Assembly: GCA_041691135.1 (NCBI GenBank) | Contig: JBEPVF010000005.1 | Location: forward strand, 21,639 to 85,638 | Length of the DNA stretch: 64,000 nucleotides | Source: Candidatus Peribacteria bacterium | GTDB taxonomy: Bacteria > Patescibacteriota > Gracilibacteria > Peribacterales > Peribacteraceae | Reading direction: 5' to 3' | Part shown: one piece after another, positions 40,106-44,364 of the stretch | How the letters are laid out: every line of letters starts with the position of its first letter | Numbering within the stretch: the first letter of the stretch is position 1 | Made by a program: the position numbers and the translations under genes | The notes under the pieces: model-generated | Databases searched by the model: none | What the model was told of the DNA's origin: nothing | The model's input: the letters and a program-made list of their open reading frames with translations, nothing else

Positions 40106-40126
40106 AGAGCGCCATGCTTGGCGCGG
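40106..40126. repeat. REP-like palindrome, left of RAYT
   Basis: AGAGCGCCATGCTTGGCGCGG, inverted relative to the right copy (one T shorter). Confidence 0.8.
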
Positions 40127-40144
40127 ATGGACGATAATAATTTC

Positions 40145-40591
40145 ATGTCTCAACGCCATCCCGTCCAGAATGAGCGAATGATGTTAGTCACAACCAATAC
40201 AAAAAACAGGGAGAAAATTTTCATCGATCCTGTCTATGCATATATAGCTTTGGAATCGATTTACCGTACACAAGAACGGCAACCCTTCTTTCTCTATGGA
40301 TTTGTAATTATGCCAGACCATTGTCATTTGCTTATCCGAGTACCTGAAGAAGGAGCTATTTCTCGAGTTATGTATGCATACAAAAGAAGTGTGTCATTCG
40401 AACTAGGAAAAGGTCCGATATGGCAACCACGATTCCATAGTAAAATCGCTGAAAATCCATCTGGAGCACTGCACTATATCCATTGGAATCCGGTAAAAGC
40501 TAAATTGTGTGAAATGCCAGAGAATTATCCTTGGTCATCGGCCTATGGAAAATGGGATGTGATGGAATTGGAATGGATATATGGAATATAA
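40145..40591 (+). mobile_element. REP-associated tyrosine transposase (RAYT, Y1/IS200-like HUH)
   Basis: FVIMPDHCHLLI (HUH), IWQPRFH, YIHWNPVKA, YPWSS; flanked by inverted palindromes; AT-rich. Confidence 0.9.
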
Positions 40592-41692: not shown

Positions 41693-41737
41693 AAAAAACC
41701 CCGTACCCTCTTCTTCGAAAAGGAGATGGTACGGGGG
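41693..41737 (-). terminator. intrinsic terminator after hisI
   Basis: Minus strand ACCCCGTACC...GGTACGGGG followed by TTTTTT. Confidence 0.75.
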
Positions 41738-41760: not shown

Positions 41761-42516
41761 TCAGTAAACTTGGCTGGGATCGAAGAGACGATCATGAACA
41801 ACCATCATCGTACCTCCAAGATATTGACGATGGAAACAGCTTCGATAGCCCTGATGACAGGCTCCGGTCCCCTTTTCCTGTTCGACATCGAGCAAGATAG
41901 CCGGCCCCAGAGGGTCAAAATGAACGCGCCTCACTTTTTGCACATGTCCACTCTGTTCACCTTTGCGCCACAGACGACGGCGACTTCGTGAATAGTAGTG
42001 GGCGAAGCCCGTGTCGAGCGTCGCCTGAAACGCCGCACGGTTCATGTAGGCCAACATCAGCACCTCTGGCCAATCTGTCACAGTGACAGGAATGAGTTGG
42101 CCTCCATCGAGAAATGTGACCGGATTGTCCTCATGAAAATGAGATCTCCAGTCGAATCTACGAGGATTTTGTGAGGCCTGCGGAAGGATCTCAAGAACGA
42201 TGCGCACGGCGTCCGCATCACAATCAAGATATACCTGTTTAATATGATGCTCGTCCGTCAACTGAAGAATTGGGAAGTTCCTCGAAAAACGGAGCCCGAC
42301 CTGTTCGTGATAGAGAAATTGTTCAAGCCTTGAGGCGCAAAGGAAGATGCTTCCTGTGCCATTTCCGTCGTGGTAAGTCGGGTGAATGTACCGCAAATTG
42401 CGGAACAACGCCTTCCACCCTGGTTCGTCGATCCAGCGCTGGAAAACAACGTTTTGATCGATGCACGCGATGACCGGAATCATCTTGTTCTCAAACTGCT
42501 CGAAGTTCGGGCGCAT
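41761..42516 (-). CDS. hisI: phosphoribosyl-AMP cyclohydrolase, tandem two-domain form
   Basis: C-half: LMLAYMN, YYSRSR..LWRKGEQSGH, ACHQGYRSCF; N-half: IPVIA and LDCDADA; AGGAG ribosome site upstream. Confidence 0.88.
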   Translation of the reverse strand: MRPNFEQFENKMIPVIACIDQNVVFQRWIDEPGWKALFRNLRYIHPTYHDGNGTGSIFLCASRLEQFLYHEQVGLRFSRNFPILQLTDEHHIKQVYLDCDADAVRIVLEILPQASQNPRRFDWRSHFHEDNPVTFLDGGQLIPVTVTDWPEVLMLAYMNRAAFQATLDTGFAHYYSRSRRRLWRKGEQSGHVQKVRRVHFDPLGPAILLDVEQEKGTGACHQGYRSCFHRQYLGGTMMVVHDRLFDPSQVY

Positions 42517-42741
42517 GGGACTCTCCTGTAAATGCCGCTGTTGCGAAAGACCGATCACACTTGCTTCGAATCGCCGAGATTCGAAACTTTTTCAATTCGC
42601 CTTTGCGAAAAGCCTCCAACGAGGAGGGGGCGAGATCGATCGATTACTTTGGATTAATTAACTACATCGACACCGGCCCCTCATCGCTGAAGAGTCGGTA
42701 TGAGGCCGCTGTATGAGAATAAAATTTTGAAGCACGGGGCG

Positions 42742-42814: not shown

Positions 42815-43828
42815 TTAGGGCTGTTCATTGGTAAAAGGAAGCACTTTATACACTTCTGAGCTACGCCCTTTTTTCCCTCTCATCAGGGGACTGACTAGAG
42901 GATCTTTTACGCCTCTGCGAGCAAGCTCATGATTTGTTGCCATTTCTTCTGCTGCAGGAACGGCAATCATTAATGAGGATAACTCTGAACCATCGCGCGT
43001 CAGGACCCTGCTTATAGTAGGCCCCGACATTCCTAAATCCTCAAATTTTCTGACTTCTGAAGCAGGGACATGAAAAGTGAATGTTACGAATAAGTTTTGC
43101 TCAAGGGCAGATTCAATTTCAGATCCCAACATTTGTAAAGCAGCCCGAGATGACGCAGAGATCGTTTGCACATTCGTGACAAATAAATCCGTTTGTATAT
43201 TACTAAGGTCAGCAACACCTACATTGGGATAGAACGCCTCATTTCGCACAATCTGCAGACAATTTATTCTCGCTGTCTCACCCGAACCTACAATTTCAAA
43301 AGCAGCTGTATTCAGATCGTTATTCTCTGCCCTTGCTTCCTTCACTCGCGTATCTGCCCCTTTCGTCCTACGCACCCGAGCGTTGATTCCCCATTCTTGC
43401 AATAATTTGTCTAATAGGTGGGGGAAGCTGGTAAATATTCTCCTGTCCGTCAAATCAGACGGCTTCTGAACAGGATTTTCCACAGGGGCCAGTATGTTGA
43501 GCGAACATTGTCCGGCGTTGAGAGGTAACAATTTTGTAACGCTGGGGCTGAAACCATATTCACCGGCTTGCAATCTCGCTTCTTCCAAGACATCGGCGCC
43601 AAATATGATGCCAGCACTGACATTCCTCGTATTCTCTAATGCAATGGCCAATGCATCTGGGCCTTCGATTCCCCTAAAGACAAAATTTCCTTCTCTGATC
43701 TCATCCTCACGATCAAACTTTCCACGAGCAAGGTTCGTGAATTGAGCTCTTTCGGCTAGGTCGCGTAAACTGCTGCGAGACCCATCCTTGAATGATGATT
43801 TGGGAACGATTACTAATTGTTCTTTCAT
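42815..43828 (-). CDS. hisG: divergent long-form ATP phosphoribosyltransferase
   Basis: GIIFGADVLEE, RIFTSFPHL, EIVGSGETARINCL, C-terminal GMSGPTIS..RGVKDPLV correspond to HisG motifs; context with hisI. Confidence 0.75.
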   Translation of the reverse strand: MKEQLVIVPKSSFKDGSRSSLRDLAERAQFTNLARGKFDREDEIREGNFVFRGIEGPDALAIALENTRNVSAGIIFGADVLEEARLQAGEYGFSPSVTKLLPLNAGQCSLNILAPVENPVQKPSDLTDRRIFTSFPHLLDKLLQEWGINARVRRTKGADTRVKEARAENNDLNTAAFEIVGSGETARINCLQIVRNEAFYPNVGVADLSNIQTDLFVTNVQTISASSRAALQMLGSEIESALEQNLFVTFTFHVPASEVRKFEDLGMSGPTISRVLTRDGSELSSLMIAVPAAEEMATNHELARRGVKDPLVSPLMRGKKGRSSEVYKVLPFTNEQP

Positions 43829-43863: not shown

Positions 43864-44292
43864 TCACTTCTGCAGATATTTCTGCAGCACCGTCACCGGT
43901 ATTACTTTCTGCGGACCTGTATCGGCAGGTTTTGCTTCATTCATATCAGTTTTTTCCACCGATGCAGGCTTGCTATGCATGCGATGATGCCGATGAGCGT
44001 TCAAAAATTTACGGTAGCCACCCGGCCCGTTCTCGATAAACTTCGCCACACGTGTGACAGTCGTCGTTGATGCGCCGGTTTTCTTAGCCACCTCGCGATA
44101 ACTCATCCCCTGTGCAATCAATTTGGCTACCTCCAACCGCTCACTCCAGGCCTGGAGCTCGCTGAGCGTTCCGATGTCGCGCAAAAGATCGGCCATTTCT
44201 TGCTCCGTTTTGCAGGAAATAAAAGCACTGCACAATGTGCGGAACCAGGGTTCCTTGCGATAACTGTCGTCGGTGAAGCGTACTTTGGACAT
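43864..44292 (-). CDS. YerC/YecD (TrpR-like, HisR-type) regulator
   Basis: LLRDIGTLSEL..WSERLEVAKLI..SYREVAKKTGASTTTVTRVA; start at MSKVRF. Confidence 0.88.
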   Translation of the reverse strand: MSKVRFTDDSYRKEPWFRTLCSAFISCKTEQEMADLLRDIGTLSELQAWSERLEVAKLIAQGMSYREVAKKTGASTTTVTRVAKFIENGPGGYRKFLNAHRHHRMHSKPASVEKTDMNEAKPADTGPQKVIPVTVLQKYLQK

Positions 44293-44314
44293 AGAGAATC
44301 GAGGTAAGAGGGAC

Positions 44315-44364
44315 ACAGTATGCGCCGAACGAATATGTGTCAATGTTTTATCACATTAAAACAT
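44315..44364 (-). promoter_or_regulatory. sigma70 promoter TTGACA-17-TACTGT with abutting palindrome
   Basis: -35 at 44338-44343; ATGTTTTA-TCACAT-TAAAACAT at 44343-44364. Confidence 0.7.

Follow-up and report, generated by a model that had tools for sequence, protein, structure and literature searches.

Phosphoribosyl-AMP cyclohydrolase (HisI; Pfam domain PRA-CH) is a textbook homodimer with its active site at the interface between two chains. Here we describe an elongated HisI, P0001, in which two fused copies appear each to have lost what the other keeps. It is encoded in a window of 64,000 nucleotides (nt), the whole stretch of DNA analysed, from a Candidatus Peribacteria bacterium (assembly GCA_041691135.1, contig JBEPVF010000005.1). 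According to the passages on the active site in PMC8102479, the two chains of canonical HisI are tightly intertwined in a swapped dimer, in which the catalytic zinc site combines Cys126 of one chain with Cys142 and Cys149 of the other and His143 acts as the general base. The aspartates of the Cys126 loop bind a second metal, and the WTKGETS and SRS segments bind AMP (same passages of PMC8102479). A preliminary description of the locus started from the premise that the zinc site is composite across HisI subunits, which agrees with this account.

Three described systems come closest to P0001. It resembles homodimeric HisI, such as that of Methanobacterium thermoautotrophicum (PDB 1ZPS), in its set of catalytic residues when both halves are combined, and in a site that would be built from two HisI-type modules. 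It differs in being one chain with unequal halves, in that just one of the two symmetric sites is possible, and in that neither the SRSR/WxKGExS strands nor the CH-x5-C loop is present in the N-terminal half. As in HisIE and the plant HISN2 enzymes (PDB 6J22, 6J2L, 7BGM), which are matched by the C-terminal half with E-values of 2e-10 to 3.5e-7, HisI is part of a longer fused chain; however, the partner in P0001 is a second, degenerate HisI rather than HisE, and a scan of the genome detected no PRA-PH domain. The elongation of hisA and hisF, the classic example from this pathway, in which two half-barrels are fused, likewise involved tandem duplication and fusion to give two paralogous modules per chain, as treated in the duplication passages of PMC1963479 and PMC7284861. 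That elongation is universal and ancient, whereas the tandem HisI is confined to one lineage and shows complementary active-site loss.

No description of a HisI pseudo-dimer or of hisI elongation was found in the literature searched, with supplementary files outside its scope. Single-chain pseudo-dimers exist in other protein families, as in the pepsin-type compared with the retroviral aspartic proteases, and in ADAT2/ADAT3 compared with the TadA homodimer. By analogy, P0001 may share with these the conversion of the interface site of a symmetric dimer into an asymmetric one after duplication, with one site working, but their folds and chemistry are different and the likeness is one of analogy only. 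In PMC7284861, which deals with the elongation of his genes, “hisI” occurs twice, neither time about elongation. In PMC1963479, on his gene fusions, the duplication passages covered (12 of 14 places) concern hisA/hisF and general points, and the terms “tandem” and “two copies” do not occur, “hisI” not having been among the terms searched. The literature searched held nothing joining Peregrinibacteria with ATP phosphoribosyltransferase and nothing relevant on Peribacteria and histidine.

The two halves of P0001

The open reading frame (ORF) of P0001 comprises 251 amino acids (aa) and a stop codon on the minus strand, with the ATG at 42516 and the stop at 41761-41763. The preliminary description had placed an ORF at 41761-42516, which exists, the minus strand having gone unseen there. 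It had also put the length at about twice that of a normal HisI, which fits the 143-150 aa of the single-domain HisI matches P0002-P0005 (47-49% coverage of P0001 in the homologue listing). The gene has the following features.

41761..42516, minus strand: whole ORF, tandem HisI~HisI protein P0001 (Pfam PRA-CH, NCBIfam NF000768)
42521..42526, minus strand: Shine-Dalgarno sequence GGAGAG, 4 nt ahead of the ATG at 42516 (read from the sequence)
42127..42516, minus strand: N-half, residues 1-130, strongly diverged, truncated and apparently HisI-derived (hhalign)
42208..42228, minus strand: LDCDADA, predicted metal loop, residues 97-103 (D98, C99, D100, D102), invariant in the tandem rows
41764..42126, minus strand: C-half, residues 131-251, HisI domain minus the DCDxD loop (PRA-CH, 1zps_A match)
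41980..41997, minus strand: YYSRSR, residues 174-179, phosphate-binding SRS region (role according to the active-site passages of PMC8102479)
41944..41973, minus strand: LWRKGEQSGH, residues 182-191, WxKGExS nucleotide-phosphate/adenine site (role from the same passages)
41899..41919, minus strand: FDPLGPA, residues 200-206, degenerate DCDxD remnant (C to P, D to L, D to P)
41833..41862, minus strand: ACHQGYRSCF, residues 219-228, with predicted zinc ligands C220 and C227 and predicted general base H221 (roles from the same passages)
41693..41736, minus strand: terminator-like hairpin (41699-41736) and U-tract (41693-41698), from folding

The C-half contains YYSRSR, LWRKGEQSGH and ACHQGYRSCF, with FDPLGPA replacing DCDxD, just as first reported. 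The PRA-CH model (PF01502) scores 106.3 bits against the whole of P0001 and 98.1 bits against residues 127-251 alone (cut-off 27), and NCBIfam NF000768 scores 133.1 bits against the whole protein (cut-off 126) and 123.5 bits, slightly below the cut-off, against the C-half alone. The C-half matches HisI of PDB 1ZPS (1zps_A; E 2.6e-30). When P0001 is aligned with 93 HisI homologues, the C-half retains 47 of the 55 columns conserved at a level of at least 85%. Three of the eight lost columns are the cysteine and two aspartates of DCDxD (C202P, D203L and D205P), which in the homologues are conserved in 93/93 (Cys), 91/93 (middle Asp) and 93/93 (last Asp) cases. Since 47 of the 55 columns are kept and DCDxD is among those lost, the C-half is a well-maintained HisI domain whose loss is confined to the metal loop. 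The substrate-binding SRSR (S176-R179) and WxKGExS (W183-S189) motifs are present and invariant among the homologues. The Mg-binding D-x-D-x-D motif is incomplete in the C-half, where D201 alone is kept in FDPLGPA, and the full DCDAD sits in the N-half. All three zinc cysteines and the histidine are thus found in P0001, but divided, with C99 in the N-half and C220, H221 and C227 in the C-half. No single domain holds all the zinc ligands, and the C-half has a proline at the position of the DCD cysteine.

The N-half had been described as starting like HisI, keeping LDCDADA and lacking SRSR, WxKGExSG and CH-x5-C, and all of this was found: MRPNFEQFENKMIPVIA makes up residues 1-17, and the metal motif lies at residues 97-103 (42228-42208). 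The start, MRPNFE..., closely resembles the MRPDFER... of single-domain HisI in related genomes. A search of Pfam with the N-half alone gave zero matches, and NCBIfam gave one 19-residue match over the DCD stretch (E 0.046). Scanning each half with the PRA-CH hidden Markov model, proposed as a check in the preliminary description, thus bore out the C-half, which is recognised, and not the N-half. A phmmer search with the N-half against 1.84 billion representatives returned only itself and one weak, repeat-like match of 403 aa, and an ESM Atlas search with it gave no usable match. A BLASTP comparison of the N-half with the C-half is too weak to be informative (E 0.46), and no DNA-level repeat was found between the two halves. 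In profile alignment, hhalign matches the N-half to a 27-sequence HisI profile with a probability of 82.8% (E 9.4e-6, score 37.7) over 83 colinear columns, and none of 200 shuffles reaches this score (mean 12.3, standard deviation 2.4, maximum 20.2). The corresponding probability for the C-half is 100%. The N-halves of the tandem relatives described below (17 rows from 16 distinct proteins, P0001 excluded) match the canonical HisI profile as a family with a probability of 98.8% (E 7.7e-17) over 78 colinear columns, and with the DCD columns masked the match still reaches 94.9%. These profile comparisons indicate that both halves are homologous to the same HisI domain.

A tandem HisI family with a reciprocal split

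In a homologue search with P0001, all of the best 120 of 977 matches except P0001 itself cover about 36-61% of the query. A first reading of P0001 as a singleton was overturned by a whole-genome search of its bacterial family, in which PRA-CH was found in 48 of 200 genomes and the stop-to-stop frames around each match were scanned with the HisI profile. In six other genomes (G136, G126, G049, G051, G199 and G012), the HisI domain also lacks the DCD cysteine, and about 100 in-frame residues ahead of it carry DCDxD (NCYQD in G012). The same split is therefore present in 7 of the 200 genomes, spanning six genera, with the genome of P0001 included. A profile of six tandem proteins retrieved 16 full-length tandem proteins, P0001 among them, from a collection of 5.8 billion proteins, and the reciprocal split is seen in 17 distinct tandem database proteins overall. 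Homologues with the same split, a search for which was proposed in the preliminary description, thus exist and form a small family in related uncultured bacteria; that description had recognised neither this family nor the gaps in the histidine pathway of the genome. Two of the proteins are listed with a source name, one as “Candidatus Peribacterales bacterium” and the other as “Patescibacteria group bacterium”, and their annotation reads simply phosphoribosyl-AMP cyclohydrolase. Tandem HisI carries this plain label in the databases because Pfam sees the C-half alone.

The loss of the DCD cysteine and the presence of an upstream motif go together. Among 52 HisI domains, taken from this bacterial family with a few added from its class, eight lack the DCD cysteine, and seven of these are preceded by an N-terminal half with [DN]C[DY]xD. 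No such motif stands upstream of any of the 44 domains that retain the cysteine. The eighth Cys-less domain comes from G035, a member of another bacterial family; its CH motif, too, is without the C and H, and only the last Cys is left. In the alignment of the tandem proteins (18 rows, 17 distinct), the invariant residues of the N-half are D98, C99, D100 and D102, and those of the C-half are S176, R177, W183, K185, G186, E187, S189, G190, Q193, C220, H221 and C227. The N-half varies freely outside DCDxD. In the relatives, a short linker of conserved length joins the halves, and both the linker and the N-half are longer in P0001. The duplication, fusion and reciprocal loss proposed in the preliminary description are hence supported at the level of sequence and comparison: the first two by the family match of the N-halves to HisI, with and without the DCD columns, and the third by the counts of 7/8 and 0/44 and by the complementary residues invariant in 17 proteins.

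The predicted structure of the homologue in G126, modelled by AlphaFold2 with the tandem family in the alignment, is confident over all 226 residues, with a predicted local distance difference test score (pLDDT) of 95.4 and a predicted template modelling score (pTM) of 0.91. Its N-half consists of strands 15-22 and 28-35, helix 36-48, strands 62-68 and 75-80, and a further helix, with DCD in the hairpin between the last two strands. This order mirrors that of the C-half, minus the two short SRSR/WxKGE strands and the CH-x5-C loop. The top Foldseek match of the model is 1zps_A (template modelling score 0.80 on the target, 50% identity), and it covers the C-half only. In the AlphaFold2 model of P0001 itself, the C-half is well predicted, with a pLDDT of 82-97 per 10-residue block from residue 131 and mostly above 90. 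The structure prediction called for in the preliminary description gave one confident unit with a HisI-like order of strands and helices in the N-half for the homologue, and low confidence for the N-half of P0001. The model of the homologue suggests intramolecular packing as a pseudo-dimer.

A tree of the 52 HisI domains sorts them into three classes, with all seven tandem proteins within class C. The C-half of P0001 clusters with four tandem proteins, with a support of 89 in the Shimodaira-Hasegawa-like approximate likelihood ratio test (SH-aLRT). A single clade of all seven is not rejected by the approximately unbiased test (p-AU 0.27, or 0.44 without G012), and a single origin of tandem HisI is compatible with the data, though not proven. 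In G049/G051, the sole close pair (dS about 1), the ratio of non-synonymous to synonymous change (dN/dS) has the same value of 0.05 for each half, which indicates that both halves are under purifying selection. At larger distances, the N-half gains about twice as much non-synonymous change as the C-half.

Some members of the family vary in other ways. The tandem protein in G136 (L049:1629-2312), P0127 and P0130 have GIDGQYVLGHRTMGIRVGRII-type tails rather than the conserved ERVFDPxQVY C-terminus, which suggests that this subgroup shares a frameshift or has a different C-terminus. The protein in G012 (L010:1189-2508) has 440 aa, with tandem HisI halves, the N-half motif NCYQD and an insertion in the SRSR..WxKG segment. 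Its C-terminal extension of about 200 aa has no Pfam match, and a by-eye impression that the extension is HisE-like was dropped since Pfam gives nothing.

Histidine pathway, proposed mechanism and alternatives

The genome of P0001 (1.74 Mb, 92% complete) contains one PRA-CH domain. Scans of this genome found no PRA-PH (hisE), no Histidinol_dh (hisD) and no IGPD, and His_biosynth (HisA/HisF), which was checked in this genome and in five relatives, reached just 20.7 bits here, below the cut-off. Across the bacterial family, 19 of the 200 genomes carry hisD, and the seven tandem genomes are not among them. PRA-PH occurs in 42 of the 200, with one marginal match of 20.9 bits among the tandem genomes. 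PurH, considered as a sink for a product like 5-aminoimidazole-4-carboxamide ribonucleotide (AICAR), was set aside as it is present in 156 of the 200 and does not discriminate.

The hisG gene adjoins the tandem hisI in all seven tandem genomes. Upstream of P0001 lie two further genes.

42815..43828, minus strand: HisG-like neighbour, a diverged long form of 337 aa, upstream of hisI (Pfam HisG)
43864..44343, minus strand: TrpR/YerC-like regulator gene at the head of the module (Pfam Trp_repressor, 72.5 bits)

The HisG-like protein is 15-25% identical to the HisG of the relatives. In its loop region for phosphoribosyl pyrophosphate (PRPP), it reads ...EIVGSGETARINCL, and the relatives read ...IVEATETGxSLxRNGL. 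The locus is syntenic between genomes, running from fusA to the TrpR-like gene, hisI and hisG, with ribD after hisG in G199 only. A TrpR/YerC-like gene stands beside hisI-hisG in 16 of 20 fetched class-C loci, in addition to the window of P0001. Genes of the Trp-repressor family (YerC/YecD-like) also occur at 6 of 10 class-B loci and at 3 of 25 other loci. Two genomes, G180 and G211, have a complete his operon that includes a HisIE-type gene and, on another contig, a class-C hisI-hisG pair. Because the pair coexists with a full his operon there, it is a paralogous module and not simply as a leftover of the pathway. Together with the missing hisD and hisE, this coexistence implies that the role of P0001 probably lies outside ordinary histidine synthesis. 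In small-genome bacteria without the other steps, the enzymes for steps one and three of histidine synthesis are conserved as a regulated pair, which in two genomes stands alongside the complete operon. This points to an unrecognised use of the chemistry of phosphoribosyl-ATP and phosphoribosyl-AMP.

We consider it probable that the elongated HisI arose by tandem duplication, fusion and reciprocal loss, leaving one composite intrachain site in a module outside the histidine pathway. An ancestral hisI would have been duplicated in tandem and the copies fused into a single chain, after which the N-half would have shrunk to strands one and two, helix one and the DCDxD beta-hairpin. This hairpin is predicted to supply the Mg-binding aspartates and the first zinc cysteine, C99. 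The C-half would have stayed a full HisI with SRSR, WxKGExS, C220, C227 and H221, having lost its own DCDxD. Because the zinc site of ordinary HisI spans the dimer interface, the two halves could pack as a HisI dimer does and rebuild exactly one canonical site. The mirror site would be without any ligand and dead. The expected chemistry is that a zinc-activated water molecule cleaves the N1-C6 bond in the ring of an adenine nucleotide phosphoribosylated at N1, and P0001 would work with the adjacent, diverged HisG in a TrpR/YerC-headed module. Metal binding, catalysis, substrate and intramolecular packing are all inferred here. If the reading is right, P0001 would be a clean, datable case in which duplication, fusion and reciprocal degeneration gave a single composite site.

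Several observations weigh against this reading. When LDCDADA is masked in the N-half of P0001, the first 37 columns alone align, with a score of 18.4 that falls within the range of the shuffles; because of this drop, the homology of this N-half depends on two blocks that align colinearly, namely the N-terminus that resembles HisI and the hairpin with DCD. Compared with the other N-halves, it is significant over the 21-column DCD hairpin only, and its first strand has an ambiguous register, being placed at residues 12-18 by hhalign and at 44-50 by MAFFT. The pLDDT of the N-half in the model of P0001 is 26-63, from an alignment that covered the C-half only. Two of the 17 tandem proteins, P0134 and P0135, have a cysteine in the loop of the C-half, one column off the canonical place and with no aspartate. 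The dN/dS figure comes from one pair with a dS of about 1. The order of the genes is trpR-hisG-hisI in the genome of P0001 and trpR-hisI-hisG in G126 and G199, and in G012 hisI also directly follows trpR. With hisE, hisD and IGPD not found and hisA/hisF below the cut-off, the normal supply of substrate and the use of the product are missing. The Pfam HisG match of the neighbour is weak and partial (47 bits, 16-126 of 158). Finally, single-domain class-C HisI proteins of the same family keep the cysteine but alter the Mg-binding aspartates, with the universally conserved DCDxD changed to NC[NY]xD (L005, L032, L036, L039, L042, L044 and L052) or to DCPPED (L017 and L043). Most genomes with these variants are without hisD, the exceptions being G180 and G211. 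The missing pathway, the weak HisG and the altered aspartates in the relatives could mean that catalysis has been relaxed or changed.

A more specific proposal, which is possible but for which we would not claim probability, is that the TrpR/YerC-like-hisI-hisG module of these Peribacterales-type bacteria constitutes a separate two-enzyme pathway instead of a vestige of histidine synthesis. It would convert ATP (or ADP/AMP) and PRPP into a ring-opened phosphoribosyl-adenine nucleotide without HisE, and the asymmetric, one-site HisI would be adapted to a different substrate or to a direct partnership with HisG. HisI-HisG fusions are found in sister lineages.

The composite site could instead be assembled between chains, with the N-half of one chain complementing the C-half of its neighbour, which would give a swapped dimer or a larger oligomer with two sites per dimer. 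Canonical HisI is itself a swapped, intertwined dimer (active-site passages of PMC8102479), and the linker and N-half of P0001 exceed those of the relatives in length. However, the homologue in G126 is confidently modelled as one unit in the form of a monomer (pTM 0.91), and the linker of the relatives is short and of conserved length, so we regard intermolecular assembly as unlikely.

It is similarly improbable that P0001 is a pseudoenzyme with a nucleotide-binding or regulatory role, kept for binding the product of HisG or HisG itself and performing no ring opening. Such a role would fit the absence of the remainder of the histidine pathway, the strong divergence of HisG, the tolerance of altered Mg-binding aspartates in the relatives and the HisI-HisG fusion of another family in G035 (L006), which is missing the cysteine of DCD as well as both residues of CH. 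The 17 tandem proteins nevertheless hold one full catalytic set that is invariant, including the histidine and the three zinc cysteines, and a mere binder would not need these, which disfavours the pseudoenzyme. Moreover, DCDxD is the sole strictly conserved part of a fast-changing N-half.

That hisG and hisI are a decaying relic, drifting to pseudogenes after the loss of the pathway, with the N-terminal part as a leftover, is very unlikely. No match to hisI or hisG was found in the four other genomes of the genus, HisG is weak in the genome of P0001, and the N-half of P0001 finds no relatives as a single query. Yet the frame is intact and has a Shine-Dalgarno sequence and a terminator, the C-half keeps 47 of the 55 conserved columns, dN/dS is 0.05 for both halves in the related pair, and many genera share the conserved module, which in G180 and G211 occurs alongside a full his operon. 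Least credible of all is that the N-terminal 130 residues are an unrelated extension with LDCDADA by chance, which would agree with the lack of a Pfam match, the BLASTP E-value of 0.46 between the halves and the loss of significance in P0001 when the motif is masked, but is contradicted by the shuffles (0/200), by the family match to HisI with and without the motif, by the invariance of the motif across the tandem family and by its occurrence upstream of C-halves that have lost their own motif and of no others (7/8 versus 0/44).

Gene signals and related proteins

The Shine-Dalgarno sequence of P0001 has a counterpart in the relatives, as AAGGAGA precedes the ATG that opens the N-half in five of six of them. 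About 25 nt past the hisI stop, a GC-rich hairpin followed by six U was found by folding (-25.4 kcal/mol, z -3.2), and it was also detected as an inverted repeat. A consensus terminator scan did not pick up this hairpin downstream of the hisI stop.

Fusions of HisI and HisG are found in a second class of HisI, in G191 on contig C10 (a frame of 522 aa), G148 (459), G128 (460), G187 (442) and G056 (467), with the PRA-CH and HisG matches sharing one open frame. In the fusion in G035 (L006, 355 aa), DCD is replaced by DND and ACH by AVED, so that the last Cys is the sole zinc ligand left. Frames of 468-651 aa with a weak HisG-like and a PRA-PH-like match occur in genomes without a detected PRA-CH, for example in G162 (C1:314113-315213), G193 (C34), G107 (C61), G093 (C4), G120-G123, G092, G045, G149, G094 and G020. 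These may represent a HisG-like/HisE-like fusion.

An IS200-like Y1 transposase gene (40118-40591, plus strand; Pfam Y1_Tnp, 39 bits) lies between ribD and a gene for a flavin mononucleotide (FMN) reductase, at a distance of about 1.2 kb from the module on its hisI side.

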